IMG/VR virus record: IMGVR_UViG_3300049440_000066
Location: 1 to 55,303 of that record
Reading direction: 5' to 3' (one strand)
From: a virus
Taxonomy: Duplodnaviria; Caudoviricetes
DNA: 55,303 nt
A program made the translations under genes and the position numbers. The notes beneath the pieces were generated by a model. It had not been told where the DNA came from, ran no database searches, and saw only the letters and a list, made by a program, of their open reading frames with translations. Positions 1 through 55,303 of this stretch are shown one piece after another; position 1 is the stretch's first letter; each line of letters begins with the position of its first letter.

Positions 1-127
1 CACCTTGGAACGATTGTTGAGGTACGCGACGGGCCGGGAGACTTCGTTCTGATGAGCCGGGAGAACTGGCATCTCCTTCGAGGCTATCTCGATCTTGTGA
101 GTTACACACATATCGACTCTCTCTTGT
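1..127. repeat. Terminal direct repeat, copy 1 (circular contig overlap)
   Basis: 1-127 is identical to 55177-55303, and an ORF reads in frame across the junction. Confidence 0.97.
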
Positions 128-318
128 GGTGGACCGCCGAGAAATTCGGAATCAAGAAGGCCATGCTCGAAGAGTATGTCGTTCACGAAGACCATGACCG
201 CTCCGATCATAAGAGCAGGTGGGGCATTCACTCAAGCGACATCCACAGATTCATCGGACAGAGGAATGACGAATCCTGGGGCCTGCACGAAGTCACACTC
301 TCGGAGACGATGACATGA
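1..318 (+). CDS. 3' part of the origin-spanning GT-A (GT2-like) glycosyltransferase that starts at 54778
   Basis: In frame with 54778 through the repeat; GDFVLMSRENW and HxxH motifs; ATGA overlap with the next gene. Confidence 0.8.
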   Translation, partial: HLGTIVEVRDGPGDFVLMSRENWHLLRGYLDLVSYTHIDSLLWWTAEKFGIKKAMLEEYVVHEDHDRSDHKSRWGIHSSDIHRFIGQRNDESWGLHEVTLSETMT

Positions 319-1307
319 AGGTCGGACTTTTGTATCCGACAGTCGGAGCACTGTGCGAGAAGATGGCTTCGATATTTCCGGGCCTCACGGTTATCGGTCC
401 TCCCTGCGACGATCTCAATAAATGGCCGAAGGAAATACTTCCACTGGCAAAAGCCATCGACCGGCAAGCGGAATGGAAGGAACTCGGCCTCGACATCACT
501 TTCGAGGAAAAGCCCTACAGCGAGTGCGACTTCTCGAAATTCGATCTGCTCATCGAATCGGTGGAAACCTTCAACTATGCCGCCGACTGGAAGAATCATT
601 GCCACCGCCACGAATGCCCGACCATCGTGTTTGTCTGCTGGTACGACAATCCAAGCTACCTGCCGGCGAACTATCGGGAAAAGATCAGCAAAGTACCTAT
701 CCTGCTCGGAATGCCCTCGGCACTTCCGGCATGGCAACTCGAATATCCACAGGCTAAGGTTGTTCCTGTTCCAGTCGGCGACTGGTGGTTTCAAAACGAA
801 TGGACCGGGAAACGCGAAGAAGCCCTGTTCGTCCTCGCCGGCAAAGACCTCTGGCGTCCCGAAAAGTCAGTGTGCGGCGTGGATATTTTCGAGCGACTAT
901 CGGAACGCTTTCCGGGTAAGATGCACCACCACGACGGAGCAACAGATTTCAAGACCGGAAAGCAGATGGCCCAAATGTTCAGCGAGTACCGGGTATTCGT
1001 GAATCTCGACAATCAAGGCGCAAGGCCGCTTTGCACTTCGTTTACCGAGGCGCTTGCTGCCGGTATGCCAGTCGTCGCTCGGGACTTGCCGGGACTGAAC
1101 TACAAGAACTACATCGACGAGAATGGAGTTTGCACCGACGAGTTCGAGAAAATGTGCGACTTCCTTTGCATGTGTTTTTCGGGAGTCGGTTATACGAAGT
1201 ATGCGAGCAATCGAAGCAGGGAAATTGCCATGCAAAACTTTTCAATCAGTGCTGCTCGGCCACACTACGAATCGGCTGCCATCGAAGCGGGGATGAAGTT
1301 CAAATGA
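315..1307 (+). CDS. GT-B fold (GT4-like) glycosyltransferase
   Basis: C-terminal VFVNL...FTEALAAGMPVV signature. Confidence 0.8.
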   Translation: MKVGLLYPTVGALCEKMASIFPGLTVIGPPCDDLNKWPKEILPLAKAIDRQAEWKELGLDITFEEKPYSECDFSKFDLLIESVETFNYAADWKNHCHRHECPTIVFVCWYDNPSYLPANYREKISKVPILLGMPSALPAWQLEYPQAKVVPVPVGDWWFQNEWTGKREEALFVLAGKDLWRPEKSVCGVDIFERLSERFPGKMHHHDGATDFKTGKQMAQMFSEYRVFVNLDNQGARPLCTSFTEALAAGMPVVARDLPGLNYKNYIDENGVCTDEFEKMCDFLCMCFSGVGYTKYASNRSREIAMQNFSISAARPHYESAAIEAGMKFK

Positions 1308-2194
1308 TCTCTCTACTCTTGCCTTCCCGTAAACGTCCTGAAATCCTTGAACGAATGGTTAAATCCGTTCGCGATACCGCCACAAATCATGTGGAAATAG
1401 TTGTCCGCTTCGACGATGACGACTTGGAGAGTGCTGACGAAGCCCCCGGAGATGTGTCAACCAGCGACCATGTGGATGAAAGCGAATTGGATGTTCCCCC
1501 GGAATATGGCGTTGTCGCCATCGTAGGACCGCGCTATCGGAAAATGACGATCTACTGGAACGAATGCTTTGATGTCTGTGGCGGCGATATTGTCTGCCAA
1601 GCGAACGACGACATGCTATTCACGACTCCCGGCTGGGATGTGATGGTCGAGAAAGCCTTCGCCGAGGTTCCCGACAAGATGCTGCTCGTTCACGGTGACG
1701 ACGTTTTCGGGCATCGAGGTAACTTCGGTCCTCACGCCTTCGTGCATCGCAAATGGATCGAGACTCTCGGATATTTCATTCCGCCATACTTCTGCTCGGA
1801 CTTCGGAGACGCTTGGATCAATGAACTGGCCGACCGAATCGGTAGACGCAGATACGTTCCTTTCAATGTCGAGCATCGGCACTTCTCCCACGGATTCCCG
1901 GAAATGGAAGATGAAAACACCAAAGACCGACTCGCCCGACACGCCGAGGATGATCCCGACGCCATCTACTATAGCCAAGAGAAAATGGCCGAACGCGCAA
2001 GGGACGCGCAGAAGTTAGCAGCCCTCATGGATGCGGCAGTCGATACGCACGGCTGGACGCCTCCGAAGGAACGCTCGGGAATCCTGAGCATGGGCAAATG
2101 TCCGAAGTGCGGGAGTGTATCGACGGTGCCCGGAGCGAATGGAAAGATTCATTGCAACCAGGATGGACATGAGTGGGACCGAGTGAAGAAATGA
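1304..2194 (+). CDS. GT2-like glycosyltransferase with C-terminal Zn ribbon
   Basis: MISLLLPSRKR start (ATG 1304 overlaps the previous stop), EIVVRFDDDD, NDD motif, VEHRH; C-terminal CPKC...CNQD. Confidence 0.85.
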   Translation: MISLLLPSRKRPEILERMVKSVRDTATNHVEIVVRFDDDDLESADEAPGDVSTSDHVDESELDVPPEYGVVAIVGPRYRKMTIYWNECFDVCGGDIVCQANDDMLFTTPGWDVMVEKAFAEVPDKMLLVHGDDVFGHRGNFGPHAFVHRKWIETLGYFIPPYFCSDFGDAWINELADRIGRRRYVPFNVEHRHFSHGFPEMEDENTKDRLARHAEDDPDAIYYSQEKMAERARDAQKLAALMDAAVDTHGWTPPKERSGILSMGKCPKCGSVSTVPGANGKIHCNQDGHEWDRVKK

Positions 2195-2895
2195 AATGGG
2201 ACATCCTCTGCCTGACGATGCCAAGTCGGACTGAGTTTCTTGCCCGCTTACGGCAGAATATCGAACCGCAACTTAGAACTGGTGTTCGCTTCGTCGTAAA
2301 AGTTCACGATCCCGAACTGTCTCTAGGTTCCAATCGGCAAAGAATGCGAGAGGAATCGGACGCTCACTATGTATCGTTTGTGGACGACGATGACCTCGTA
2401 GCTGGCGATTATGTGTCACAAATTCTTCCTCGCCTTACGAGGGACTACGTTGGATTTTCGCTCCAAGCCTACGAAGATGGAGTTCCCCTTCCAGGCCCAA
2501 CTTACCATTCCCTGATGTGTGGAGGATGGTTTGATAAAACTTTTGCCGATGGAACGAAGGCTTGGTTTAGGGATATTTCGCATCTAAACCCAATCAAACG
2601 CAAACTTGCTCTGGCCGTTCCAATGTACGGCGGCTTTGCCGAAGATAGCCGATGGGCTGGCGAACTTCGGGCGCTGGGCATCGTAAAGACAGAGAATTTT
2701 ATAAATGAAGTCATGTATCACTATTATTCGAGACCAGGAAAGAAAGACGGTGTAAGTCCTGGGCCAGTAACGGCGGGAACCTGTCCGCATTGCCAATCAT
2801 TTTCTACGGTAATGATCGGGAAGGCCAAGATATTCTGCAATCGCTGCTCGTACGAAGGACCGTTAAGCGGACCATTGCCCCTTGCTGGTCAATGA
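2191..2895 (+). CDS. GT2-like glycosyltransferase with C-terminal Zn ribbon
   Basis: ILCLTMPSR, LGSNRQ, YVSFVDDDD, FAEDSRW, YHYY; C-terminal CPHC...CNRC. Confidence 0.85.
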   Translation: MKWDILCLTMPSRTEFLARLRQNIEPQLRTGVRFVVKVHDPELSLGSNRQRMREESDAHYVSFVDDDDLVAGDYVSQILPRLTRDYVGFSLQAYEDGVPLPGPTYHSLMCGGWFDKTFADGTKAWFRDISHLNPIKRKLALAVPMYGGFAEDSRWAGELRALGIVKTENFINEVMYHYYSRPGKKDGVSPGPVTAGTCPHCQSFSTVMIGKAKIFCNRCSYEGPLSGPLPLAGQ

Positions 2896-3426
2896 ATAGC
2901 CCGCTGCGAGATGGTTAAATCTAACGTGCGGCATGACTCCGGTTTTCAATCCCTTTCGGTTAATCTCATCGCAGATGGTGCCATCGACCTGATCGGCTCG
3001 GCATTCTCGGAACTCGGTCAGGATTCCCTTGCGAACGAAAGCTATCCCTCCGACCGCGTGCATTTCGATCACGTCCGCAAGTGGAACTTCATGGCCCGCC
3101 GGGAATAGGCCATCGCAAATACTTGTCGCCGAAAGAAGCCCGTACTCGGGATGCGCTTCGAGTGTCGCTACACCCTTCGAGATGAAGTCTTTCCCGAGAA
3201 TCAGGCAGTCCGCGTCGGCAATCACATAGATACTGGACGTGGCATTTTCCTCGGCAGCCTTCTTCGATTCGATATGGAAGTTCGGTCCTTCCCCGAAAAT
3301 TTCTTCGAGTCGGCAATCTTTTTGCAGGAGCCAGCGAGCGAGAACGGCCTGTGTCAATCCCGACCGAATGCCGATCTTATCGCAGCACATTTCGGTGTGG
3401 TGGATTCTTACGAAGGCGTCGATCAA
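2863..3426 (-). CDS. Small GT-A fold glycosyltransferase-like protein
   Basis: IYVIADADC (DxD), GGIAFVRK, VD, FNHL. Confidence 0.6.
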   Translation of the reverse strand: MIDAFVRIHHTEMCCDKIGIRSGLTQAVLARWLLQKDCRLEEIFGEGPNFHIESKKAAEENATSSIYVIADADCLILGKDFISKGVATLEAHPEYGLLSATSICDGLFPAGHEVPLADVIEMHAVGGIAFVRKGILTEFRECRADQVDGTICDEINRKGLKTGVMPHVRFNHLAAGYSLTSKGQWSA

Positions 3427-13153: not shown

Positions 13154-14158
13154 ATGGCCTTCATTACAGGAACAGGAATCAACCAGCCTAGCGCGACACT
13201 GGTAAACACGCTCCAGTCGATCTCGCAGAAGATGATCTACCCGAAGGTTGCGGACCTCGTGTTCCAGCCGTCGCCGACATTCTCATTCCTGAACCAATAC
13301 GCCAAAAAGTACAATGCAGGGGCCGAAATCGTCTATCCCTTGCTGACCACGAAGATTACGACTCGTGGCGCGTATTGGGGCGACCAGCTTTTGCCGACTT
13401 CGGCGATTGACGCCATCCAACCCGCTGACCAGGTGTGGCGCGGCTATTTCCAGGCCGTGACGCTGCCGGTCATGGACATCGTTATCGGTCGCGGCGGTCC
13501 TGTGGGTCTCGATCTTGTGAAGACCTACGTGCAGGCTGCTGCCGGTTCGATGCTCGACATGCTGGCCGAAGCGGTCGCGGGCAATGCGCCGTTCAACTCC
13601 TCGATTGACCTCGATTCGATCAGCGCATGGGTACTGTCCACCACGAACACGATTGCCGGAATCAACCGCACAACGAACTCATTCTGGCAACCAGCGGCGA
13701 ACCAAGCCATCGGCGGACACCTCACTCCGATCAAGCTCTTGCCGGCGTACTTCCTGACGACTTTCGGCTATGACGAGCCGAACCTGTTGATTCTGAACAA
13801 CACTGACTTTGCGAACTTCGAGGGACAGTTCACGCAAAACTCGAACGCCTCGGCATCGACGACCATTATCCGCGCGAGCGACAATTACGCGGACACGGCC
13901 CCGATCCAGACTTCCTTCCGGTATCACATGCGGTTCAAAAATGCGGTAGTCCTTGCGGATCAACACTTTCCAGCAGGAACCGGTTACCTGCTGAACACGA
14001 AGTACATCTGGATGATCTATAATCTTGGCAGTTATTTCCGCATGACTCCGTGGATTATGCCGTCGAACCAGGACGTTATCACCGCGAGGATTCACTTGAT
14101 CGCGCAACTCGGCTGCAATCGTCCTTTGGCCCAGGTTGCGCTCACGACTTTGAGCTAA
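13154..14158 (+). CDS. Major capsid protein
   Basis: 334 aa with strong SD, after the scaffold gene; GINR...FWQ, V.D...P.GT.YLLNT, LGCN.P..Q motifs. Confidence 0.85.
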   Translation: MAFITGTGINQPSATLVNTLQSISQKMIYPKVADLVFQPSPTFSFLNQYAKKYNAGAEIVYPLLTTKITTRGAYWGDQLLPTSAIDAIQPADQVWRGYFQAVTLPVMDIVIGRGGPVGLDLVKTYVQAAAGSMLDMLAEAVAGNAPFNSSIDLDSISAWVLSTTNTIAGINRTTNSFWQPAANQAIGGHLTPIKLLPAYFLTTFGYDEPNLLILNNTDFANFEGQFTQNSNASASTTIIRASDNYADTAPIQTSFRYHMRFKNAVVLADQHFPAGTGYLLNTKYIWMIYNLGSYFRMTPWIMPSNQDVITARIHLIAQLGCNRPLAQVALTTLS

Positions 14159-31495: not shown

Positions 31496-31975
31496 ATGCA
31501 CGCAAAGCTATCCAACCCAGAATTGAGATTATGCGCTAGGAATGTTTGCCGTAAACCTTTTCTATCTGATTGGTCTGACAAACAGTACTGTATCCGCTTA
31601 TGTAAAATAAAAGAGGCCAATGAGCGGCACCGTCAGAGATTCCCAGAACGAGCACTTCAAAGGTCTAGGGATTTTGAAGCTCGCCATCCACACAGAGGAA
31701 AAGCCTACGCTAGAAAGTTCAAATATGGAATCAGCCAAGAGAAATTCGAGGCGATGATCCTAGAGCAAAAGAATTTCTGTAAACTGTGCGGGTTGCCTTT
31801 TGGTGAAGGCATTGTCCCTCGCGTAGATCACAATCATAAGACGGGGAAAGTGCGCGGACTTCTGCATGACAAATGCAATACTGGGATCGGCTTCTTTTCA
31901 GATGACCCATCTCTATGTCGGAAAGCTGCGAAGTACTTAGAGGATTCTGATGTCTTGGATATACGTTCAAAATAG
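31496..31975 (+). CDS. Endonuclease VII-like (HNH) homing endonuclease
   Basis: KYGIS...Q...CKLC...[25 protein letters not shown]. Confidence 0.9.
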
Positions 31976-32336
31976 CGGTCAACTGATTTCACCAGCGGGT
32001 GGCCTTATGGCAACTGGTTATAGTGGCGCGGGCACAGGAAAAAACGCGCCTACCGAGGAGAACGTGCAAAATGTCGGACCAATACCCGAAGGATGGTATG
32101 ACATCGAAGCGCCGGAAAATTCACCTACGCACGGGCCATTTGCCTTACGCCTTTTGCCGGACGCCGGAAACGCCATGTATGGACGCTCTGAGTTCCTTAT
32201 CCACGGTGACAGTATCGAGCGCCCCGGCCAAGCGAGCGAAGGTTGTATTATTTTGCCTCGATTTGCCCGAGAAGCCATCTGGAACGGCGGGGATCACCGA
32301 TTGCAGGTAGTCAAGGAACTGCCGACCAAGACATGA
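31950..32336 (+). CDS. Tlde1/DUF2778-family peptidoglycan-acting protein (probable endolysin)
   Basis: [37 protein letters not shown]. Confidence 0.85.
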
Positions 32337-40368: not shown

Positions 40369-41184
40369 TTATCTCTCGCAAAGATTATAGATGCTCATGC
40401 ACTTCTTGGATTCTTCCCAAGGCAATTCAGCAAGAGTTTTCATATCTAAGTATGTGAACACATCTTCCGAAGTCGGGAAACTCTTCCCGCTTTTCACGTC
40501 GAAGCCTGTTTGGAATCGCTTAGGGATGTAATTCGGTGGAAAGAACGATCTGCCGCAGATTTCCTCAAGTCTTCGCACGCGACGCTTGAAGTCAGGACCG
40601 AGGATCGGATCGAGCAGGAATGCCTTCGCCTCACGATGGTTAATCAGCACGCAAGGAAAGCATCCCACGCGCCCGGCATTCATAAGATAAAGTGGATTCG
40701 GTTTGACGCCGTGTTTATGAGCGATTGCGAACACTTGCTCAACATTCCAAAATGCAAGTGGATGATTCACCCAGCAGTCGTACCAATCGGACCATTCGCG
40801 CTCTTGTAATTGGCTGCGACTATCGCTTTCATCGCGCCTTTTACCGTCGTAAAGCTCAAACTCATCCTCCACAGTTTTCAGGAACTCGATCATGGGCTTA
40901 ACTTTTAATTCCTCTGTGCAAAAGCGTGCCTTCGCCGAAGGCACGCGATGCTTGATCTCGACGAGCTTCTCCATTCCCATCGAAGGCAACGCATGAAACT
41001 CGACTCCCCTGAGAAGACTTTCTTTCATTTCTGCCAAATACCCGTACATCAATTCGTGCTCCCAGATCGTGTCATTGAAAACCACAATCAATTCAGAAGG
41101 ATCGAACCTCTCTTTTGCCCAGCACACAAGCGCAGTTGAATCTTTGCCCGTGCTGTAACCAAGGATTCTTTTCACTTGAGACAC
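40369..41184 (-). CDS. PAPS reductase family protein
   Basis: STGKDS PP-loop, DT..EH, RFCTEELK..P, G.RRDES..R, NPLY...RVGCFPC. Confidence 0.88.
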   Translation of the reverse strand: MSQVKRILGYSTGKDSTALVCWAKERFDPSELIVVFNDTIWEHELMYGYLAEMKESLLRGVEFHALPSMGMEKLVEIKHRVPSAKARFCTEELKVKPMIEFLKTVEDEFELYDGKRRDESDSRSQLQEREWSDWYDCWVNHPLAFWNVEQVFAIAHKHGVKPNPLYLMNAGRVGCFPCVLINHREAKAFLLDPILGPDFKRRVRRLEEICGRSFFPPNYIPKRFQTGFDVKSGKSFPTSEDVFTYLDMKTLAELPWEESKKCMSIYNLCER

Positions 41185-41514
41185 ACCCCCGTCTTTTCTC
41201 CTGCATTTACTCTTAGCCCGGATTGAACACACCCACACCCTACGCTATATGCAGTCGCCTGTTGTGAGACGGGTAGCACAGAGCAGGACTTTTTTCTAGT
41301 TTCGGGAATGGGCACAACGTGACCTTTACTCGCAGAAGTAATGTCATCAAGGCTGGCATGGATTGTGACAAAAGGCCCTCCATACAAGGGTAAGGAAAAG
41401 GGCGATGTGTATGGCACCGCCCCTTGATCCTCTGGCACCGAGACTTGCATCCCGGCCCCATATTCAATTTCTCGGCGCAATCTACCGCGAGTCTCGTTAG
41501 GAGTCAAGAGTTTT

Positions 41515-41721
41515 CTAGACCTGATTTTCGGCAACATTCGCCATTGCCTTTTTAGCGAAGAAACACGCCTCTTCGAGTTTGGTCTTAACGATTGCCAATT
41601 CTCGGCCCTCTGGACAAATCAAACTCAATCCTCCGAGAAGAGCACTGAAATCTCCGGCAATCTGGACCGCTTTTCCTTTTCCTGTTTCGTTGAGCATGTG
41701 GACTTCAAATAATGGGTACAT
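41515..41721 (-). CDS. Acb2/Tad1-like helical-hairpin protein (putative signalling-nucleotide sponge)
   Basis: CPEGRELAIVKTKLEEACFFAKKAMA; SD AGGAG before ATG 41721. Confidence 0.6.
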   Translation of the reverse strand: MYPLFEVHMLNETGKGKAVQIAGDFSALLGGLSLICPEGRELAIVKTKLEEACFFAKKAMANVAENQV

Positions 41722-41804
41722 TTTTCTCCTTTTAGTTTTCGGCACAAAGCCGCTTGCGCCGTAATGATGCCGCATAAATTGTTCGCTCGTGGGACCGTAT
41801 CGAC

Positions 41805-42017
41805 TCATCGGCCTTTTTCTGATTCTTTAAGAACGACGCGATAGAACTCCACACTTTGTCGGAGCGTTCTGTCCATTACAGCAGATCGATTATCGGCCCA
41901 TGCACAGGCGCAATATATAAGATGAATTCGAGCAAATTCTAATTTCTTTTTTATGTCTACAACTTTTGCAAATGGTCTATCAGTTTGTGGATCATGCGCT
42001 CCATTAGATTCGCTCAT
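41805..42017 (-). CDS. Hypothetical protein
   Basis: Co-oriented ORF. Confidence 0.5.
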   Translation of the reverse strand: MSESNGAHDPQTDRPFAKVVDIKKKLEFARIHLIYCACAWADNRSAVMDRTLRQSVEFYRVVLKESEKGR

Positions 42018-42283: not shown

Positions 42284-42496
42284 TTAGTCTTTCCCTTCGA
42301 GGATGGCCGAAAGCTCGTCGGCATACACAATCATCCGGCTCATTTCGTTTTTGTGATACTCGAAGTCAGCATTCCTTAGTATTTCCGCGTGTTCTCGCCA
42401 TTTTTCGGGCAGCGCAAACAGTTTCTCGAAAGAAGCCTGCACTTCCAGCGGCGCATGTTGACTCCACAGCCAGTCTTTGATGGAGGTTCGGCTCAT
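42284..42496 (-). CDS. Hypothetical protein
   Basis: Coupled to the ERF gene. Confidence 0.6.
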   Translation of the reverse strand: MSRTSIKDWLWSQHAPLEVQASFEKLFALPEKWREHAEILRNADFEYHKNEMSRMIVYADELSAILEGKD

Positions 42497-43263
42497 GGGT
42501 TAGCCGCTTTCTTAGCCGACTGCGCCCAATGCACCGGGACATTGGCCCGTTTGCACATATCCTCGAAGGCGAAGGCGTTTGCCGCCGGGATCGTGACCAC
42601 GTTGCCATCGAGCTTGAATCCAAGGCCTTTCAGTTCTTCGGCTTCGATCTCAGCCTTGACGACGGCTAGACCGCCACCCGAGACAGCGACAAATCCTTCT
42701 TTCCATTCAGTCAGGGCCACGGCGTCATCGCCTTTCTTAGCTGCTGCTTTTCGGAGTTTGTCTCCAGCTACAGCGTTGGCCTCTTGTTTCGATCCCACTC
42801 CCGATGCTTTATTGCCGTCGTCATCCTCTTGGGCCACATTCGTCATGGCAGCAAGGCTATAGCGTCGAGCGTAGGTGACAGCCGATCCGACCGATTGAGC
42901 GTCGAAGCGTTCACGCATCATGGCCGGAAGAGTCAAGTCGGAAGCCATCCACTCGCCGGAAGTATGGGCCAGCATGGTCGTGACTGTAAGCATCTTGGCT
43001 TCATCGGAGCCGAACTGAGCGTGTGGCATTTGAATGACGGCCACGCCCTCGGCGGCAAGGTGTTTGCGCGTGGCTTCAATGATGGTGGGCAGGTCGGCAT
43101 ATTTAGACCTATAAGCCGGATTGTCGGCATCTTTGAGCACCGGATCGAACTTGAGAGAGGCTTTTGCAATCGCTTCGACCAGTTTGCCGATGGTCGGAGA
43201 CATGCTCCAACTCATTTTCGGCACTTCGGCCTGTTCTTTTAAAGCAGGTTCGGGAGTGCTCAT
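42493..43263 (-). CDS. erf: ERF-family single-strand annealing protein
   Basis: NP...SKYADL, H.SGEW, AQSVGSAVTYARRYSL, EDDDGN. Confidence 0.92.
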   Translation of the reverse strand: MSTPEPALKEQAEVPKMSWSMSPTIGKLVEAIAKASLKFDPVLKDADNPAYRSKYADLPTIIEATRKHLAAEGVAVIQMPHAQFGSDEAKMLTVTTMLAHTSGEWMASDLTLPAMMRERFDAQSVGSAVTYARRYSLAAMTNVAQEDDDGNKASGVGSKQEANAVAGDKLRKAAAKKGDDAVALTEWKEGFVAVSGGGLAVVKAEIEAEELKGLGFKLDGNVVTIPAANAFAFEDMCKRANVPVHWAQSAKKAANP

Positions 43264-45414: not shown

Positions 45415-45733
45415 CGCCATCCCTCCCAGCTTCGGAATCAGTTCTAATCATGTGCTTGTGCTCCTCGAAAAACTTACGCAATGGGCCATTTTCGGGGAAC
45501 TTAGTCCAATCCTTGCTAACTTGCACCTCGTCGAGAATCGGCTTGCATTTTTCATGTAGGCAGAAGTCTTTTTCCAATCCGTCCATTCCGGCAATGTGGA
45601 CGTTTGTTCCGAATAGAATCTCGGTGAGGAAAGTATCGCCACAGATCGCACAGACACCCAAGTTACCGCCCGGCCCCGGCATGTTCCAAACCGCTTTGCG
45701 TGTCTCGGCCCCGGCAATCGTTTTATCGCTCAT
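45404..45733 (-). CDS. Hypothetical Zn-binding protein
   Basis: CAICG...HEKC. Confidence 0.6.
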   Translation of the reverse strand: MSDKTIAGAETRKAVWNMPGPGGNLGVCAICGDTFLTEILFGTNVHIAGMDGLEKDFCLHEKCKPILDEVQVSKDWTKFPENGPLRKFFEEHKHMIRTDSEAGRDGDVG

Positions 45734-46299
45734 GGTCGGCCTCCCCACTGTTCAGCCATCGCATCGGCAATTCCTTGAAGTGTACGGCTGCGATTCTTCC
45801 AGCGATCCGGGCTTGGTGGTTCCCGATGTACTCGCGCATACCTGCCTTCCACAATATCGGTAGGAACCAGCTTGGGCAATTTCTTGAGCCACAGGCACGT
45901 TGCTTTTGTTTCGGGATGTCCGAATTGCCACGGTTGAATGATCTGATCCGGCTTGCGCCAGTGGGTACTCAAAACTCCGATAGGATTCTCAATGGCAATC
46001 TTCGGAATGGTCAATTTAGCCAGAAACAGAACAAAGCTGATCGCCTTTAACTGCTCCTCACTCTTGTCCTTGAACCATCTGGCACCACTAACCGCCAAGT
46101 GTGTGCAAGGCGGAAAAGCAATCATCATGTTCCAATCGCGGATATGTCCATCTACAAGCGTTTCGGCAATCGTACATTGAAAATGGTATTTGGAATTGCG
46201 CTCACAAGGAAGAATGTCACAAGACCAAGCATCGTGACCCTGTTTTCGGAAGGCATCCCGCACAATTCCCGAAAATTCACAGGCAATCAATACTCGCAT
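45730..46299 (-). CDS. Short phage C5-cytosine DNA methyltransferase-like protein
   Basis: VLIACEFSG, SCD, FPPCT (catalytic PC), IENP, RSRT..GIA.AMAEQW. Confidence 0.8.
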   Translation of the reverse strand: MRVLIACEFSGIVRDAFRKQGHDAWSCDILPCERNSKYHFQCTIAETLVDGHIRDWNMMIAFPPCTHLAVSGARWFKDKSEEQLKAISFVLFLAKLTIPKIAIENPIGVLSTHWRKPDQIIQPWQFGHPETKATCLWLKKLPKLVPTDIVEGRYARVHREPPSPDRWKNRSRTLQGIADAMAEQWGGRP

Positions 46300-47313: not shown

Positions 47314-47976
47314 CTAGCGTGCAAGTAGTTCAATTTCCAGTTTCATAAGAGCATCGCGGACGTTGTTTGTGCTGTCTTTGGCTATGCGTGCGAAGTCTGG
47401 GGAATCGTCCCTGATCGCTTGTCCAGACTCTCGACACCACACGCAAGAAAGCAATTCGGCCAGAGACTCACGCATCCCATAATTGCTAAACTCTAAGACT
47501 CGGCAACGGGACAAAAATCGCTTTTCTAGGCCATCGGTTGAGTTGCAAGTGAAAATCCAAATGGTTGCCGGCGGCGCCGCAGTTGAGTCTAACTTAGAGA
47601 GGAGTGCAAGCTGGGCGCCTTCAGTCATACGGTCGGCTTCGTCCACGCATACCACGTGGAAACCATTGACTTTGGGAGTGCAATACCAGCACATACGCAC
47701 GGTTTCATCTATGGCGCGCGCGTCACACTTCTGCGACGGGATGTGATGCCATTCGCCGCCGATCGTCTCGCACAGAGCTTGCGCCATCGTAGTCTTCCCT
47801 GTACCTGGATTCCCGGTAAAAACCCATGCACTCGGCGCCGGCCGAAGACTGAACGAGGAAAGCACTTTCTTAACCTTGTCTAGACCGATAAAATCGGAGA
47901 TCACATGCGGACGATACTTTTCGGCTAGTGGCGCTGGGAACGGTAAACCTTGAATTGGTTCGCTAAATAGACTCAT
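47314..47976 (-). CDS. AAA+ ATPase, clamp-loader/RFC/DnaX-like
   Basis: LAEKYRP...DFIG, GNPGTGKT, VDEAD, AQLALL, FLSRC, RDAL. Confidence 0.88.
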   Translation of the reverse strand: MSLFSEPIQGLPFPAPLAEKYRPHVISDFIGLDKVKKVLSSFSLRPAPSAWVFTGNPGTGKTTMAQALCETIGGEWHHIPSQKCDARAIDETVRMCWYCTPKVNGFHVVCVDEADRMTEGAQLALLSKLDSTAAPPATIWIFTCNSTDGLEKRFLSRCRVLEFSNYGMRESLAELLSCVWCRESGQAIRDDSPDFARIAKDSTNNVRDALMKLEIELLAR

Positions 47977-48383
47977 GCTCGCACCCATCCTTCCGATTTG
48001 AGATACTTTTCCCAGTGTCCAGACCGAAAACGTGTTTCGATTCCCTTACGTACTTTCGGACATTCAATGGAAACGGTCTCTCGGAGAATTGCTTGTGTTT
48101 GGCCAGCGTTGACAAGGCGAATTTGAAAGTGGGAACCATTGCCGCGATACAGGTCATAAAGACCGCTAGAGCAATCGTATAGCGGTACAGAGTCATTCTC
48201 TTTTAGCTCTGGGATAGTGTATTCAACGTCCTGTCTGTGGATTGTTTCCGACGCTGGCCAGTAGAGGAAATCGGCTTCCGGCTTGTCACCCATGATTACA
48301 GTGTGACGTACGCACAGAAAGCCGATATTGATATTTCCACTGTCTTTCGGCATGAAGACTAGAACATTTTCGCCATCTTTCAT
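47973..48383 (-). CDS. Early hypothetical protein
   Basis: SD AGGAG. Confidence 0.65.
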   Translation of the reverse strand: MKDGENVLVFMPKDSGNINIGFLCVRHTVIMGDKPEADFLYWPASETIHRQDVEYTIPELKENDSVPLYDCSSGLYDLYRGNGSHFQIRLVNAGQTQAILRETVSIECPKVRKGIETRFRSGHWEKYLKSEGWVRA

Positions 48384-49674: not shown

Positions 49675-49995
49675 ATGAAGACGACGATCAGCCTGCGGGT
49701 AGAGGTAGAGGAGAAGGAGAAGTGGGAAGCGAAGGCAGGGGAGCGGACGTTGACGGAGTGGATTCGGGAGAGATGTAACGGGGAGTCCAGCGGGAAGGAG
49801 GAAAGTGGGACGAGTAATCGAGTATCGGACGTGTCTGGGGGTGCTGAAGTTCGAGCGCCGAAGCGACGGGAGCCTGATGCCGGTGGACCTCTTGCAGCAG
49901 TTAAGTGTTCCCACTGTGGACACGACAAGTCGATTCACAAGGGACCGATGCGAAGTTGTGTTTACGGAGACTGTAGATGTGGAGGGTTCCGATGA
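49675..49995 (+). CDS. RHH DNA-binding protein with C-terminal Zn finger
   Basis: TTISLRVEVEEKEKWEAKAGERTLTEWIR; CSHCGH...H...C....CRC. Confidence 0.75.
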   Translation: MKTTISLRVEVEEKEKWEAKAGERTLTEWIRERCNGESSGKEESGTSNRVSDVSGGAEVRAPKRREPDAGGPLAAVKCSHCGHDKSIHKGPMRSCVYGDCRCGGFR

Positions 49996-50168
49996 TCGAG
50001 ATGCCAGACAAGGGGAAAGGGTACCTGCACGCAGCCTATGAGGTGGTTGAGCCTCACACGGCGGAATCTGTGTGGCAGGATTGCATGTGTGCATCGTGCC
50101 AGGACGTGCGGGAAGTGAAGAAACTGCCTCGGGGAACGACCTTTCGGAACAAGGATGAGAAGTATTGA
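49992..50168 (+). CDS. Small Cys-containing protein
   Basis: Coupled; CMCASC. Confidence 0.55.
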   Translation: MIEMPDKGKGYLHAAYEVVEPHTAESVWQDCMCASCQDVREVKKLPRGTTFRNKDEKY

Positions 50169-50350
50169 GCGTCATAAACATCCCGTATGATGGGCCGAAA
50201 ACGATGTGGGATGCTATGGTTCGGGGTGTGGACCGCTATAAGTTGAACTACGACCTAGCCTTTTCGGATCAGTGCATTGTCGATGGCCGGCGCAAGCACC
50301 GATTTGATCCGAAAACGAAGCGTTGTACCCTCTGTGGAGCGAAAAAGTGA
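50165..50350 (+). CDS. Small Zn-binding protein
   Basis: Coupled; H...CTLC. Confidence 0.55.
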   Translation: MSVINIPYDGPKTMWDAMVRGVDRYKLNYDLAFSDQCIVDGRRKHRFDPKTKRCTLCGAKK

Positions 50351-50544
50351 TAGTCGAAAGGATGAAGAGAGTCTGCCCGAGCGGAAAAACTAAATTTTTC
50401 GATAAAACTACGGCTAAAATGGTGGCAAAAAAGGATCGAAAAGTGACCGGACATTTTATCGTTCCTTACCCATGTCCACAGTGCGGTTGGTGGCACGTCG
50501 GTCATTCCGATCACTATACCGAGAAAAAGGAAACCAAAAATTGA
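50347..50544 (+). CDS. Small phage Zn-finger protein
   Basis: CPSGK..F....A...YPCPQCGWWHVGH. Confidence 0.7.
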   Translation: MIVERMKRVCPSGKTKFFDKTTAKMVAKKDRKVTGHFIVPYPCPQCGWWHVGHSDHYTEKKETKN

Positions 50545-51362
50545 CGGATCGAATCTGCGTCTGCGGACTCGGCAAGGTTGGCAGGCCGATCCTCAACATG
50601 CTCCGACAGAAAGGCTTTACCGCTGTCGGCTACGACCACATCCCGAAGCACTCCGAAGTTAGCCTCAGTCAGGCAGTCGATCAGTCCGATGCATGCATCT
50701 TCATTGTCCAGACGCCTTCCCTTCCCGATGGCTCGTTCTCGAACGATTACCTCATGGATGCCCTGAATCGTTTTACTGTGGCTGCTAGAGCCGCCCGAAA
50801 AACGGATTACCTCTACATCGTAACGAGCACCACGAATCCCGGTTCCTGCGACCAGTTTCGGCACATCGTCGGCGATAACATCGTCTATAAGCCGGAATTT
50901 ATCAGGCTGGAGCATGTCGATGCCGACCTTCTCACTCCCAGCTTCATCCTCATCGGGGAAGGGTGCAAAGAAGCCGGAGATAGGGCGGTAGGCATTTACA
51001 GCGACCTGTTTAGGTTCCATCCCATCTTCAGAGGCACCGACATCCCCATCAAGCGCATGTCCCTCATCGAAGCCGAACTCGCCAAGATCACCCTCAACTG
51101 CGCCTTGACCATGAAAATTTCCCTCGCGAATCAACTCTACCTCGTCGCCCGAAAACTCGGTGCCGACCCTCGAAAGATCATGGATGCCGTCGGTGCGGAC
51201 CCGAGAATCAATCCCCACTACCTCGAACCGGGACGCCCTTACTCCGGCCCATGCCTTCCTCGGGATAATCGCATGTTCCAGTTTACCGCCGAAAAAGCGG
51301 GAGTCTTCGCGGCCCTCTCTATCGCCGCCGATGTCATCAACGGGATGCTCGATAATGAATGA
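50541..51362 (+). CDS. UDP-glucose/GDP-mannose dehydrogenase family protein (C-terminal domain absent)
   Basis: GLGKVG, VQTP, ST..PG, PEFIR, AELAK...N, DPRI, GPCLPRD. Confidence 0.88.
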   Translation: MTDRICVCGLGKVGRPILNMLRQKGFTAVGYDHIPKHSEVSLSQAVDQSDACIFIVQTPSLPDGSFSNDYLMDALNRFTVAARAARKTDYLYIVTSTTNPGSCDQFRHIVGDNIVYKPEFIRLEHVDADLLTPSFILIGEGCKEAGDRAVGIYSDLFRFHPIFRGTDIPIKRMSLIEAELAKITLNCALTMKISLANQLYLVARKLGADPRKIMDAVGADPRINPHYLEPGRPYSGPCLPRDNRMFQFTAEKAGVFAALSIAADVINGMLDNE

Positions 51363-52143
51363 AATCTCCGAGTATTGGGACAGAAGGCCGTGCAATGTCG
51401 GCCACGGAATATCTCCCGTTGGAACCGAAGAGTGGTCCACGGAAGTAGCCATTCGCAAATATTTTGTCGAGCCTCATATCGTCTGGTTCGCGGACTTCGC
51501 AAGATGGAAGGACAAAAAAGTTTTAGAAATTGGCTGCGGCATCGGAACCGATACCCGTGAATTTATACGTCATGGCGTAGGCCATATTGATGCGATGGAT
51601 ATTTCCAGTGGGAGTTTGAACCTCGCTGCAAAGAGATCGTGGCAGGTTCTAAATAAAAGACAGTTGAACCTTCCTGACAAACTCGCTTGGGATAATCCCG
51701 TTGCCACATTCCATCTGGCAAATGCTGAGGATTTCCAGCCTCTCGGACCATTCAATCTCATATACAGCTTCGGAGTTCTGCATCATACGCCGAATCCCAA
51801 AAAAGTTTTAGAAATTGCGAGAAGGGGGCTTGCTCCAGACGGCGAGCTTCGCATCATGATCTATGCGAAGTATTCCTGGAAGCATCTCTTCACCCTCCAG
51901 CAGCCCGAAGCGCAAGCCGGATGTCCGTACGTGAAGTGGTACTCGAAACGAGAAGCCCGAAAACTATTGGAGTCCTGCGGCTTTAAGGTCGTGTCGATCA
52001 CCAAGACGCACATCTTTCCGTGGCGCATCCCCGAATATAGAAACCACCTTTACAAGAAAGCATTTCCGTGGAGCCTTATCTCCGAGAAATATTTTGAACG
52101 CTTCCTCGGCCATCACCTTCTGATCGTCGCGGTGAAAGCGTGA
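51355..52143 (+). CDS. Class I SAM-dependent methyltransferase
   Basis: VLEIGCGIG, DIS, NAE, IYSFGVLHHTP. Confidence 0.88.
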   Translation: MNEISEYWDRRPCNVGHGISPVGTEEWSTEVAIRKYFVEPHIVWFADFARWKDKKVLEIGCGIGTDTREFIRHGVGHIDAMDISSGSLNLAAKRSWQVLNKRQLNLPDKLAWDNPVATFHLANAEDFQPLGPFNLIYSFGVLHHTPNPKKVLEIARRGLAPDGELRIMIYAKYSWKHLFTLQQPEAQAGCPYVKWYSKREARKLLESCGFKVVSITKTHIFPWRIPEYRNHLYKKAFPWSLISEKYFERFLGHHLLIVAVKA

Positions 52144-52340
52144 ACGAAGCACATTGGGCTTATCCAAATTGCGGGTTGCTGTGCTCCTATTGTGCCTCGA
52201 TTATGGATGGCTCCGAATCTGATCATTCCGACTGGCCGTTCAAATTCATCTGGACATGCCGGAACAAAGCGTGTGCCCACTTCGGAATCCGTTACAGAAT
52301 GTCGCGCGAGCAAGGCGTTAAGCTGGAGAGAATCGCGTGA
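52140..52340 (+). CDS. Small Zn-binding protein
   Basis: CSYC...CRNKAC; coupled at both ends. Confidence 0.6.
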   Translation: MNEAHWAYPNCGLLCSYCASIMDGSESDHSDWPFKFIWTCRNKACAHFGIRYRMSREQGVKLERIA

Positions 52341-53362
52341 AAGCCGCCCTCGTCGTCACTTCGATCAACGATTGCACCGAACTTCTGAACGGCTACCTCG
52401 CCAACTTTGCAAAGTATGGACGCCAAGCGAAAATATTCCTTATCCCCGACAAGAAAACTCCCAAGCAGGAATTGCAACATTGCGCCATTGTCCCAACGAT
52501 TTCCGGGCAGCAAGACTTCCTATCGCGGGTTGGATTTCCGTACGAAGACATTCCCCTGAACTCCGACAACCGGCGCAATGTCGGCTATCTCATGGCTCTC
52601 GATTCTGGCGCGGAAGTGATCGTGTCCATCGACGATGACAACTACTGCCCGAAGGACGAAGATTTCATCGCGCAGCATAGACTACCAATGGGTAGCCATT
52701 ATCCTTCGACGGATACGCCGTGGGTTAATAATTGCGATCTTCTGTTCCGCAAATGCGTAGCCTATCCGAGGGGATTTCCATACTTTGCCAGAAACTACAA
52801 AAAAGTAAGGTATGAAAGAGTCCACGATCTATTCGAGATTCGCATAAATGCAGGGATGTGGATTGGCGATCCCGATTTCGATGCAATCACTTGGTTGTCG
52901 AATCCTCCAACGACAGCTACGACTTCAAAAGAAATAACATTGGGAAAGAATGCGTGGTGTCCGATCAACTCCCAAAACACAGCCGTCCACCGCGACCTCA
53001 TGCCCGCGTACTACTTTATCCGCATGATTCCCCCGAGTGACCGCTTCGGTGACATCTTTCAAGGCTACTTCGCCCTCAAGGTCGCAAAGCACATGGGCTG
53101 GACCGCACGCTTCGGCTCGCCCGTCGTGACCCATCGCCGGAACTCGCATGTCTACCTGAAGGATGTGCAAAAGGAAATCGAACCGATCCTCATGCTCGAA
53201 GAACTGCTTCCCAAACTCATCGAGCACAAACTGACCGGAACCACGGTCCACGAAAGCTACTTGTCATTGGCTGACTTTGTGGAAAGCCAGGACACGGAAT
53301 TTTATCGAGGAACCGCGCGTCTCATGCGACAATGGGCGGAGACGTGCAAACGAATTGGCTGA
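52337..53362 (+). CDS. RGP/UDP-arabinopyranose mutase (GT75)/STELLO-like protein
   Basis: RRNVGYL, IDDDN, PRGFPY, GMW.GDPDFDA, PINSQNTA, RFGDIFQGY...K. Confidence 0.8.
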   Translation: MKAALVVTSINDCTELLNGYLANFAKYGRQAKIFLIPDKKTPKQELQHCAIVPTISGQQDFLSRVGFPYEDIPLNSDNRRNVGYLMALDSGAEVIVSIDDDNYCPKDEDFIAQHRLPMGSHYPSTDTPWVNNCDLLFRKCVAYPRGFPYFARNYKKVRYERVHDLFEIRINAGMWIGDPDFDAITWLSNPPTTATTSKEITLGKNAWCPINSQNTAVHRDLMPAYYFIRMIPPSDRFGDIFQGYFALKVAKHMGWTARFGSPVVTHRRNSHVYLKDVQKEIEPILMLEELLPKLIEHKLTGTTVHESYLSLADFVESQDTEFYRGTARLMRQWAETCKRIG

Positions 53363-53415
53363 GGCGCGGCTAGGTCTGGCTCGTCCTGCTGCGGTGAGTT
53401 TTGGCATGGTGAGGT
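53361..53415 (+). repeat. Degenerate pentamer array (NNGGY)x11
   Basis: GAGGC GCGGC TAGGT CTGGC TCGTC CTGCT GCGGT GAGTT TTGGC ATGGT GAGGT. Confidence 0.75.
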
Positions 53416-53422
53416 TTAATTT

Positions 53423-54781
53423 ATGGCTAAAGTTATTCTAGCTGGCGGCCCGAGTTTTGCCTTGTTCAATCCGAGCTTGCACGCCTCCCTCGGTCTGCTC
53501 TATCTCGGTGCGGCTCTCCGCGAAGCAGGCCACGAAGTTAAGATCATCGACTGCCACCGTATCTCGACATTCGATCCCGAAACGAACAAGCTGAAAGTCG
53601 ATCCCGACAAGATGGAAGAATGCGACATCCTCGGCGTGTCCATCGTCACTCCAAATGCCGAGTTTGGCGGACAACTCGCCGCGCTCTGGCCCGCGAAAGT
53701 AAAAGTGGCCGGCGGTCCTCACGTCACCTACATCGTAGATGGTCCTCATGCCCAGTTCAAGCAGAAGAAATACTTCGATGGCTTTGATTTCCTGATGACC
53801 GGAGAGTGCGAGGAATCGTTCGTCGATTTCTGCAACGCTTTCGACAAGGGCGAGGACGTAACCAAAGTGGCCGGAGTCGCGTGGTTCAATCCGTTCGGGA
53901 TGCAGCACAATCCGACTCCGCCGCTTCCCGACGTGACCAAGATGTCAATTCCGGCTTACGACCTGTGGGAAAACTACTCCAAGGGAGGGCTTCAAGTTGC
54001 CTCTATCCACGGACATTCTATTGATGCCTCTGAACGTACTATCGGCTCTCTTTGGACCGCGCGCGGATGTCCTTATGGCTGCTCGTTCTGCGCAGATGCT
54101 CGCACGAAACTCCGGGAAGAAACCTTCGAGCAAATCGAAGCGGAAGTCAAAGCCCTCGCGGAAATCGGCGTCACCGCCCTCCGTGTTTGGGATGACGTTC
54201 TAACCATCAAGGCCAAGCGATGCCGAGAGTTGGCCGCTCTTTTTCACGACTACGGAATGCTCTGGCGCGGCTGGTCGAGAGTCAATCTCATGGACCCACA
54301 ACTCTTCAAAGACCTTGCCAAGCTCGGCTGCACCGAAATGGGCTTCGGCGTCGAGCATGGTTCTCCGAGGATGCTGAAGGCTATGAACAAGGGCACTACT
54401 CCAGAGGCAAATGAGCGTGGCGTGAAAATATGCCAAGATTCGGGAATATCGGCTCGCGTTTATCTTCTGATCGGCTTTCCGGGAGAAACTTGGGAGTCCA
54501 TCGGAGAAATTAGGGACTGGCTGGACCGAGTTCGCCCGGATGCAGCCAGTCTCCATATGTTCCAGCCCTATCCAGGGTGCGAAGTGTGGAACACGCCCGA
54601 AAAGTTTGGAGTCACAATTCCCGCCGAATCTTTCAGTAAGATGTGGGAACTTTGCGACGACGACCCAAGCACGACAGTTCTCGATTTGCCAACCATGAGC
54701 ACGACGGAATTGTTTCAAGCTAGAAAAGAATTGCACGACTGGATTACGGAAAATATCTCCCTTCGATTGGCAACTAGGTGA
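53423..54781 (+). CDS. B12-binding radical SAM protein (class B methylase-like)
   Basis: LGLLYLGAAL...GGPH..GECE; RGCPYGCSFC; GVEHGS; IGFPGET. Confidence 0.92.
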   Translation: MAKVILAGGPSFALFNPSLHASLGLLYLGAALREAGHEVKIIDCHRISTFDPETNKLKVDPDKMEECDILGVSIVTPNAEFGGQLAALWPAKVKVAGGPHVTYIVDGPHAQFKQKKYFDGFDFLMTGECEESFVDFCNAFDKGEDVTKVAGVAWFNPFGMQHNPTPPLPDVTKMSIPAYDLWENYSKGGLQVASIHGHSIDASERTIGSLWTARGCPYGCSFCADARTKLREETFEQIEAEVKALAEIGVTALRVWDDVLTIKAKRCRELAALFHDYGMLWRGWSRVNLMDPQLFKDLAKLGCTEMGFGVEHGSPRMLKAMNKGTTPEANERGVKICQDSGISARVYLLIGFPGETWESIGEIRDWLDRVRPDAASLHMFQPYPGCEVWNTPEKFGVTIPAESFSKMWELCDDDPSTTVLDLPTMSTTELFQARKELHDWITENISLRLATR

Positions 54782-55303
54782 ATCTTAGCGTGGTCATGGC
54801 TGGCCGCAACGATGGATATGGTGGCGGAGACTATCTCTCCCGAATGCACCGATGCCTTGCGAGCGTGGTTCCGCTCGGCTGTGAAATCATCTTCGTCGAA
54901 TGGAATCCGCCGCAAGACAGGCCGACACTCATCGAAAAGATCGGCTACAAGGGTATTCATCTAATCACCGTTTCTCACGATCTTCACTCACGGATGCACG
55001 GCGAAGACCTCATGCCGATGTTCGAGTATCGCGCCAAGAATGTCGGCATCCGGCGAGCGAAGGGCGATTGGATTCTAGTAATGAACTCGGACATCGAACT
55101 GACCGAAGCGATGCGGGTGAGGCTCCAAAAAGAACTCTACTGCGATTATATCTACGGAGCCAAGCGGCACGACATTCACCTTGGAACGATTGTTGAGGTA
55201 CGCGACGGGCCGGGAGACTTCGTTCTGATGAGCCGGGAGAACTGGCATCTCCTTCGAGGCTATCTCGATCTTGTGAGTTACACACATATCGACTCTCTCT
55301 TGT
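54778..55303 (+). CDS. 5' part of the origin-spanning GT2-like glycosyltransferase (238 aa on the circle)
   Basis: GTG 54778; LSVVMAGRNDGYGG, EIIFVEWNPP, AKNVGIRRAKGDWILVMNSD. Confidence 0.8.
   Translation, partial: MNLSVVMAGRNDGYGGGDYLSRMHRCLASVVPLGCEIIFVEWNPPQDRPTLIEKIGYKGIHLITVSHDLHSRMHGEDLMPMFEYRAKNVGIRRAKGDWILVMNSDIELTEAMRVRLQKELYCDYIYGAKRHDIHLGTIVEVRDGPGDFVLMSRENWHLLRGYLDLVSYTHIDSLL
55177..55303. repeat. Terminal direct repeat, copy 2
   Basis: Identical to 1-127. Confidence 0.97.

Follow-up and report, generated by a model that had tools for sequence, protein, structure and literature searches.

What does a tailed phage with a 55-kb genome build with a long chain of sugar-handling genes, and on what is the product placed? 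The question is raised by IMG/VR virus record IMGVR_UViG_3300049440_000066, which was analysed over its whole length of 55,303 bases (the window); its entry notes direct terminal repeats and gives a completeness of 100% by CheckV. A chain of co-oriented genes, here called the cassette, runs from position 49675 through the join of the contig ends to position 2895 (8,397 nt, 15.2% of the genome). It encodes a short dehydrogenase of the UGDH family, an S-adenosylmethionine (SAM)-dependent methyltransferase, a protein of glycosyltransferase (GT) family 75 predicted to be a nucleoside diphosphate (NDP)-pyranose/furanose mutase, a radical SAM enzyme with a B12-binding domain (rSAM) and four transferases (GT-J, GT-K, GT-L and GT-M), with a fifth transferase-like gene, N, converging on its end. 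The answer favoured here, at a probability of about one in two, is that the cassette is a self-contained cytoplasmic set for building and tailoring a glycan, the product being an oligosaccharide on the phage's own virion proteins.

A conserved cassette exchanged between phages

A preliminary description of the window, made from its sequence, had reported a co-oriented, mostly overlapping run of genes spanning the origin. The positions of the open reading frames (ORFs) confirm the run: successive genes overlap by 4-28 nt, the sole exception being a 60-nt gap 5' of the rSAM gene. One gene, GT-J, does cross the join, but the origin itself is an arbitrary contig break, because the terminal 127 nt form an exact direct repeat (1-127 = 55177-55303) that is the overlap of a circular assembly. 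The unit genome is complete at 55,176 bp, with 52.7% G+C. A naive joining of the ends gives an apparent frameshift in GT-J, an artefact explained by this repeat; once the repeat is collapsed, the gene (54778..55303 and 1..318, + strand, resuming at base 128) is an intact frame of 238 amino acids (aa), whose residues 1-238 align colinearly with the orthologues. Scans for promoters and terminators yielded no more matches than shuffled controls did, and the borders of the operon are not defined thereby.

The search for the same cluster in related phages was based on the rSAM protein and returned 32 viral loci (labelled by L-numbers), among which 13 contigs with an rSAM of 75-89% identity form the close set. 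The same gene order recurs in these relatives, and all cluster genes are under purifying selection, the ratio of nonsynonymous to synonymous change (pN/pS) being 0.16-0.47 against four relatives at saturated synonymous sites. The cassette is thus a real, selected module. GT-K and GT-L are present in all 13 contigs and GT-M in 12, the thirteenth locus ending before the GT-M position, so that rSAM and three transferases make up the common core. GT75 and GT-J each occur in 11 of the 13, together in ten; one contig has GT75 only, one GT-J only and one neither. N was found in three (L096, L098 and L108), and both contigs without GT-J carry it. The dehydrogenase and methyltransferase genes come and go as a pair, both present in nine contigs and both absent in three, with one contig cut at its end. 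In L096 the cassette is 55-81% identical to that of the window and the terminase only 35%, which indicates that the cassette has been exchanged between phage backbones. In relatives, inserts of 0.2-0.8 kb separate conserved cassette genes that overlap in the window (L001, 4152-4853; L002, 12853-13554; similar gaps in others). The DNA of the cluster had no match among INPHARED phages. Literature searches returned only a passing mention of phage GT75 genes, and no description of a phage cassette with a B12 rSAM or GT75 was found in them.

Predicted chemistry of the cassette

The GT75 protein (52337..53362, + strand; 341 aa) matches PF03214 with 57.5 bits against a cut-off of 23.8, spanning positions 57-339 of 342. 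It had first been likened to plant RGPs and their UDP-arabinose chemistry, a parallel that gives way to a bacterial one: MtdL (7XPR/7YUA) aligns over residues 4-315 with an expectation value (E) of 1e-72, compared with 2e-07 for the plant UDP-arabinopyranose mutase 8CID, and a profile of 14 GT75 family members reaches 1e-126 against MtdL. The active-site residues of MtdL were taken from PMC9937993 and transferred through a HMMER alignment. Among the 19 residues named for Mn, nucleotide or sugar binding or for catalysis, 18 are identical in the window protein, and most mapped positions are invariant in the alignment of the family (A1). In the excerpted text of that study, D109-D111 and H287 constitute the DxD motif and the Mn2+ ligands, and mutagenesis data are given for the sugar-site residues D87, D195, S228, Q229, R257 and D260 and for R159 (PMC9937993). 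The Mn ligands correspond to D99-D101 and H266, all invariant in the family; the sugar-site residues correspond, in the same order, to D77, D180, S212, Q213, R236 and D239, and the catalytic or autoglycosylated R159 to R145. The remaining identities are T13 with T8, I15 with I10, D40 with D38, S86 with S76, R90 with R80, N112 with N102, R289 with R268 and H292 with H271. The exception is Asn42 of MtdL, which with Thr13 and Ser86 makes up the GDP-type residues that select the base; it is Lys here (K40) and throughout the family.

The excerpted text ties Thr13 and Ser86 of MtdL to selectivity for GDP over UDP (PMC9937993). Because T8 and S76 match these GDP-type residues, GDP-L-fucose or GDP-L-galactose would be favoured over UDP-arabinose, and a GDP-L-hexose of this kind is the best guess at the substrate. 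The phage encodes no enzyme that makes GDP-L-hexose, so the host would have to supply it as the first step of the proposed pathway. In the second step, for which homology to MtdL and the conserved active site argue strongly, GT75 would turn the GDP-L-hexopyranose into its furanose form.

The rSAM protein (53423..54781, + strand; 452 aa) carries the CxxxCxxC motif (CPYGCSFC, residues 216-223) and matches PF04055 with 75.7 bits (cut-off 29.5). Its N-terminal B12-binding domain matches PF02310 with 37.8 bits (cut-off 32.1); AprD4 has the same domain, and cobalamin binding is predicted only. The rSAM gene is the most conserved of the cassette, with 75-89% identity in relatives against 30-78% for neighbouring genes and a pN/pS of 0.16-0.18. 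The preliminary description had taken a class B radical SAM enzyme as a sign of C-methylation. This is now only one option, because the closest solved relative is AprD4 (E 2e-19), a radical diol-dehydratase acting on an aminoglycoside sugar, and the solved methylases TsrM, CysS and TokK score lower. The 28 matches in NCBIfam all lie far under their subfamily cut-offs, the best being TIGR04479 (PhpK family) at 118.8 bits against 600. Since no curated subfamily cut-off is reached and the clade is found mostly on phage-sized contigs, the reaction is not transferable by homology. The enzyme would alter a sugar carbon, either by C-methylation or by radical dehydration or rearrangement. In two larger viral contigs the rSAM match is in two pieces, about 0.9-1 kb apart (L109, 6486-7136 and 8001-8900; L112, 7998-8621 and 9657-10046), which suggests either a split gene or an inserted element such as an intron, an intein or a homing endonuclease. 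The rSAM of Streptomyces phage SF3 (25% identity) was rejected as a member of the same cassette; it adjoins a thymidylate kinase and a NUDIX gene instead.

A cellular rSAM of 73-74% identity occurs in two Acidobacteriota metagenome-assembled genomes (MAGs), at 14060-15424 of L125 and 14623-15987 of L127. The two loci are syntenic and represent one lineage and hence one observation. In samples of Acidobacteriota genomes, the gene was seen only in the centre genome (1 of 301 for the phylum, 1 of 201 for the order and 1 of 151 for the family), and none of the other window ORFs had a match in the 14-24 kb fetched on each side. The cellular gene adjoins a GalT/HIT-family nucleotidyltransferase gene, which was discarded as a general partner of rSAM because neither the window nor the viral loci repeat this arrangement. 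Such a setting outside any glycan cluster would suit a soluble product, such as a small glycoside or an altered sugar nucleotide, in the manner of the MtdL and Hyg20 antibiotic pathways. The same can be said of the aminoglycoside-tailoring role of AprD4, the closest solved rSAM relative, and of the two bacterial GT75 enzymes given as the sole characterised ones in the excerpted text, MtdL and Hyg20, which serve nucleoside and aminocyclitol antibiotic pathways (PMC9937993). However, a soluble product is quite improbable: genes for an aglycone or scaffold were absent from the window ORFs scanned, five transferases imply an oligosaccharide, and the head-module position of the related genes in a second phage lineage, described below, argues against a diffusible compound.

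The dehydrogenase (50541..51362, + strand) is 273 aa long from a TTG start, with an alternative ATG at 50472. It had been called an NDP-sugar dehydrogenase, and membership of the UGDH family stands (PF00984, 79.2 bits; PF03721, 40.7 bits). The Rossmann motif GLGKVG and the catalytic Cys motif GPCLPRD are present together with the Lys/Asn helix, and the positions of the catalytic Cys, Lys, Asn and Asp are kept. The nucleotide-sugar part of the call is weakened, as the C-terminal PF03720 domain is missing: translation stops about 25 residues past the catalytic Cys, the N-domain is shorter by about 28 residues, and the score against TIGR03026 is 125.7 with a cut-off of 189.8, only positions 70-293 of 413 being covered. 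Proteins of this short form make up a conserved clade. PF03720 is absent from all of the 80 best protein clusters (54-78% identity), which are 190-316 aa long, and is carried by 32 of the next 40. The short dehydrogenase is not a pseudogene, given that this clade is conserved, that orthologous frames in relatives are likewise short (263-314 aa), that its pN/pS is low (0.26-0.28, similar to that of the terminase) and that the start of the methyltransferase gene overlaps its stop. A separate gene for the lost domain was also considered and rejected, since the methyltransferase gene follows directly and the frames of the relatives are equally short.

In this family the missing C-terminal domain binds the UDP or GDP moiety. 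Uronate formation at the level of the NDP-sugar is thus doubtful, and the short enzyme would instead oxidise a sugar offered in some other form than as a nucleotide sugar. The methyltransferase (51355..52143, + strand; 262 aa) belongs to class I (PF13489, 67.5 bits, 1.5e-18; phrog_22502, 7e-34) and has only generic solved relatives. The two enzymes may form a coupled tailoring pair that probably acts after the nucleotide stage, because the dehydrogenase is without its nucleotide-binding domain. Of the methylated, uronate- or furanose-containing glycan first proposed, the furanose and the methylation are retained, and a uronate made at the NDP level is the part in doubt. The calls of the methyltransferase, GT75 and B12 radical SAM genes are upheld by Pfam matches; on alignment, GT75 keeps all but one of the MtdL residues listed above, and the dehydrogenase and rSAM motifs are in place. 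A bolder proposal, which must be considered doubtful, is that the rSAM, the UGDH without nucleotide domain and its paired methyltransferase make an undescribed sugar, such as a C-methylated or deoxygenated L-hexofuranose that is oxidised and methylated after transfer, on the capsid of a soil podophage. If it were true, phages would possess a sugar chemistry of their own, beyond borrowed host pathways.

Assembly of the glycan on an intracellular acceptor would fall to the five soluble transferases. Three GT-A enzymes and one GT-B enzyme had been recognised at the outset, and family searches and modelling agree. GT-J reaches PF00535 exactly at the cut-off (23.3 bits). The same family is matched by seven of eight family members of GT-L (1304..2194, + strand; 296 aa; phrog_14945, 1.3e-24) and by all eight of GT-M (2173..2895, + strand; DDDD motif; likely start ATG 2191; phrog_14775, 2e-26), and the three are GT2-like enzymes of the GT-A type. 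For GT-K (315..1307, + strand; 330 aa), Pfam GT1 matches are below threshold. Its predicted model (pLDDT, the predicted local distance difference test, 80.4; pTM, the predicted template modelling score, 0.81) was compared by Foldseek and is closest to the GT4 enzymes ManT, PimA, MshA, BshA and SdgB (E 8e-11 to 1e-7), so that on its model GT-K is a GT4-like protein of GT-B fold. The convergent gene N (2863..3426, - strand; 187 aa, or 175 aa from Met13; DAD motif), already suspected to be a fifth transferase, had no Pfam or PHROG match. An ESM Atlas model (pTM 0.78) has template modelling (TM) scores of 0.76-0.84 to GT2 clusters in nine of ten rows, and N is, at the level of predicted structure only, a GT2-like protein and a variable accessory gene. 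A separate model of our own was unusable (pLDDT 54.8), with matches that mixed cytidylyltransferases and GT-A enzymes.

In both GT-L and GT-M the C-terminal 40 or so residues form a C4 zinc ribbon, and the two ribbons are homologous (CPxC...STV...CNxC; that of GT-L conserved in alignment A6), the fourth Cys being replaced in the window GT-L. These ribbons bear on the possibility that the cassette hypermodifies the phage DNA with sugars and so evades restriction. Glycosylation of phage DNA is well known, the profile of GT-M bears a weak resemblance to DNA-binding fingers of the GATA type in the PDB (E 8e-06), and the chemistry of the rSAM is unassigned. However, the GATA-like reading was rejected as non-specific: a match to Pfam GATA was seen in just one of eight family members (E 0.0099), and the scores of other ribbon families are similar. 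The ribbon is generic, and the homologues in the second lineage and in phages Che8 and phiAsp2 do without it. In addition, the genes that DNA hypermodification would call for did not appear. The ORF scans, which covered 62 ORFs with PHROGs and sets of 76 and 17 with Pfam, held no DNA polymerase, thymidylate-synthase homologue or TET/JBP protein. Six-frame searches gave no match for PF00303 (thymidylate synthase; control positive in 10 of 14 genomes) or PF00476 (family-A DNA polymerase; control worked); that for PF12851 (TET/JBP) was also empty, its control being silent and the result uninformative. The preliminary statement that a base-hydroxylating or thymidylate-synthase-like gene and a DNA polymerase are absent is borne out, within these searches, for the thymidylate-synthase-like gene and for a family-A polymerase. 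Furthermore, the neighbours of rSAM in other phages are NDP-sugar epimerases, several of which surround it in the larger phages L099 and L111. Taken with these findings, modification of DNA is highly improbable.

The acceptor: virion proteins or host surface

The placing of the glycan on virion proteins is favoured by a second podophage lineage with related genes, by the kinship of GT-M and by the lack of genes for priming, export or DNA hydroxymethylation. The second lineage comprises 12 loci on 11 contigs with an rSAM of 44-61% identity; a GT-L homologue is present in seven and a UGDH homologue in four. In L102, L103, L105 and L106 the block begins with a double GT that contains a GT-L domain; GT-M or a methyltransferase comes next (neither was seen in L106), then rSAM, and finally a full-length UGDH (412-437 aa) or an NDP-sugar epimerase. 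This block lies among head-module genes: it is preceded in L102, L103 and L106 by a major capsid gene of SU10 type (PF17236, E 1e-25 to 1e-30) and followed in L103, L105 and L106 by a gene for an SU10 adaptor (PF24175).

The GT domain of GT-M matches 55 phage records, all of them actinobacteriophages. The best isolate homologue is Pas33 of Actinoplanes phage phiAsp2 (37% identity), which belongs to a GT-methyltransferase-GT trio right after the tail genes. The middle gene of that trio, pas34 (L121, 7632-9422), is labelled 'DNA methyltransferase' in RefSeq, and the depositor's note describes a putative O-methyltransferase in a GT trio. As phrog_2675 bears the same label as pas34, the weak 'DNA methyltransferase' matches of GT-L-type domains are thereby explained. 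GT-M is also related to the N-terminal domain of gp108 of Che8 (25% identity, E 1e-9; pairwise 2.7e-15), and genes 108-110 are the three annotated glycosyltransferases of that phage. According to the excerpted texts, the virions of Che8, Corndog and Myrna are glycosylated, Che8 gp110 is essential, and phage-encoded virion glycosylation, documented for a few actinobacteriophages, shields the particles from antibodies (PMC11256854, PMC12363180).

Cellular relatives lead in another direction. Homologues of GT75 in cells (36-45% identity) are led by Acidobacteriota/Terriglobia MAGs and sit in surface-polysaccharide clusters with Bac_transf, WecG, Polysacc_synt, epimerase, GT2, GT4 and methyltransferase genes, and a GT-J homologue lies directly 3' of GT75 in three cellular loci. 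A general partnership of GT75 and GT-J was not supported: when profiles were run against 80 cellular GT75 loci, GT-J was found only in the three loci that had been used to build its profile. The same 80 loci gave three weak matches to GT-L and none to GT-K, GT-M or N. The cellular rSAM of the two Acidobacteriota MAGs, alongside the leading place of such MAGs among the GT75 homologues, is a hint, and no more, of an acidobacterial host.

The typical polysaccharide setting of the cellular GT75 homologues, including the three loci with GT-J, would be expected if the cassette remodelled a glycan of the host envelope, such as the lipopolysaccharide O-antigen, capsule, exopolysaccharide or another lipid-linked intermediate, at the cytoplasmic face during infection. 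The best structural matches of GT-K, which include PimA, ManT and WaaG, likewise use lipid or polysaccharide acceptors. The effect could be a block on superinfection or an alteration of the released cell debris. We regard such remodelling as rather unlikely. Scans of the window ORFs with Pfam and PHROGs found no priming phosphoglycosyl transferase, flippase or transporter, polymerase or ligase, in contrast to the surroundings of the cellular GT75 homologues, where genes for priming, flipping or transport and polymerisation occur; integrase and repressor genes were likewise absent from those scans, which is not the usual temperate setting of seroconversion. Moreover, the related cassette of the second lineage sits between capsid and adaptor genes, and the isolate relatives of GT-M belong to cassettes of the virion-glycosylation type.

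Several points weigh against virion proteins as the acceptor. The cassette is known from its genes alone, and glycan, acceptor and activities are all predicted. The link to Che8 is a single domain at 25% identity; gp109 and gp110 had no significant match to any cluster protein, and gp110 is the one cited as essential in the excerpted texts. In the window's own lineage the cassette is found outside the head module, with the replication module on one side and the packaging module on the other, and in L108 it points away from the terminase gene. No hydrophobic span was found in any cluster protein (highest 19-residue Kyte-Doolittle mean 1.40), which speaks for the virion, but O-antigen transferases are also soluble, so this absence is compatible with a lipid-linked acceptor of the host. 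The cellular homologues of GT75 and GT-J in surface-polysaccharide clusters count on the same side, and nothing can be read from the 8-25% of Ser/Thr in the structural proteins. The preliminary description had preferred virion or host surface over DNA; the choice is still a matter of inference, and the context supplied by the second lineage, Che8 and phiAsp2 now favours the virion.

If virion proteins are the target, phage-encoded virion glycosylation would reach beyond actinobacteriophages to phages of soil that are uncultured and probably infect Acidobacteriota, and would take in enzymes never linked to phage particles, namely a GT75 furanose mutase, a class-B-type rSAM and a conserved UGDH without its nucleotide-binding domain. 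The relatives, among which sub-cassettes have been gained and lost as modules, offer natural experiments for assigning the enzyme steps. In addition, the excerpted text of a soil survey lists phage-encoded GT75 and GT2 genes as membrane or carbon-cycle auxiliary metabolic genes (PMC12016548), and such a carbon-cycle reading of the GT75 genes would then need revision.

Genomic setting and comparison with known systems

Five small Cys-rich ORFs (49675-50544 and 52140-52340) belong to the run and were absent from its preliminary description. At the head of the operon, z1 (49675..49995, + strand; 106 aa) has a Cys-rich, zinc-ribbon-like C-terminal part with a weak match to the UPF0547 zinc ribbon, and its N-terminus is ribbon-helix-helix-like by eye only. 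Upstream of their cassettes, 7 of the 13 related loci have a homologue of z1 (35-54% identity). The overlapping ORFs z2, z3 and z4 (49977..50544, + strand; 63, 61 and 73 aa) have no family match above threshold; z2 was found in seven of the 13 relatives, z3 in one at the threshold used and z4 in none. Between the methyltransferase and GT75 genes, z5 (52140..52340, + strand; 66 aa) has no homologue in the 13 relatives.

The virus is a tailed phage, with genes for a large terminase (5746-7539), an SU10/P22-type portal (8531-10264) and a major head protein, or capsid (13154-14158). On the - strand lie an Erf recombinase (42493-43263), a DNA methyltransferase (45730-46299) and a clamp-loader-like AAA protein (47314-47988), and HNH endonucleases are present in several copies in the genome. 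The window has no tRNA genes. Where the structural block ends, a Tlde1-domain protein (PF10908, E 1e-14; phrog_24118, E 3e-40) adjoins an endonuclease VII gene (31950-32336 and 31496-31975, both + strand). The early region encodes a PAPS-reductase-family protein (40369-41238, - strand; PF01507, E 3e-22; phrog_424). A small protein with an Acb2/Tad1 hairpin domain (41515-41808, - strand; PF24729, E 9e-08) is a candidate sponge for cyclic-nucleotide defence signals.

The components of the cassette can be set against characterised enzymes. MtdL, of the A201A pathway, and Hyg20, of the hygromycin A pathway, are GDP-L-galactose/GDP-L-fucose pyranose-furanose mutases (PDB 7XPR, 7YUA, 7XPU and 8HL8). 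The window GT75 has the DDD motif, catalytic Arg, Mn ligands, sugar-binding Asp, Ser, Gln and Arg residues and GDP-type Thr and Ser in common with MtdL. However, it is encoded by a phage in a transferase operon rather than in an antibiotic cluster, and its 341 aa, compared with 376 aa in MtdL, reflect shorter forms of two loops and of the C-terminal helices (alignment A1). Similarly, the dehydrogenase shares the NAD-binding and central domains and the catalytic residues of the UGDH/AlgD family (UDP-glucose and GDP-mannose 6-dehydrogenases), but the whole nucleotide-sugar-binding domain PF03720 is absent. The rSAM has the N-terminal B12-binding domain and CxxxCxxC core of class B enzymes such as the PhpK-type P-methyltransferases, HpnJ, the GenK-type sugar C-methylases and AprD4; unlike the characterised subfamilies, it reaches no curated cut-off.

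As a whole, the cassette calls to mind giant viruses such as chloroviruses and mimiviruses, which encode sugar-nucleotide tailoring enzymes, transferases and methyltransferases for their capsids. Those viruses infect eukaryotes and have very large genomes, whereas the cassette takes up 15% of a phage genome of only 55 kb, and the likeness is one of gene kinds only. The nearest phage counterparts are the cassettes Che8 gp108-110 and phiAsp2 Pas33-35, with which the window shares soluble phage-encoded GT-A transferases and a methyltransferase. In contrast to the mycobacteriophage cassettes, that of the window has best cellular relatives that point to a host outside the actinobacteria, and beyond the Che8 and phiAsp2 sets it adds a GT75 mutase, an rSAM with a B12 domain, a truncated UGDH, a GT-B enzyme and zinc-ribbon tails.

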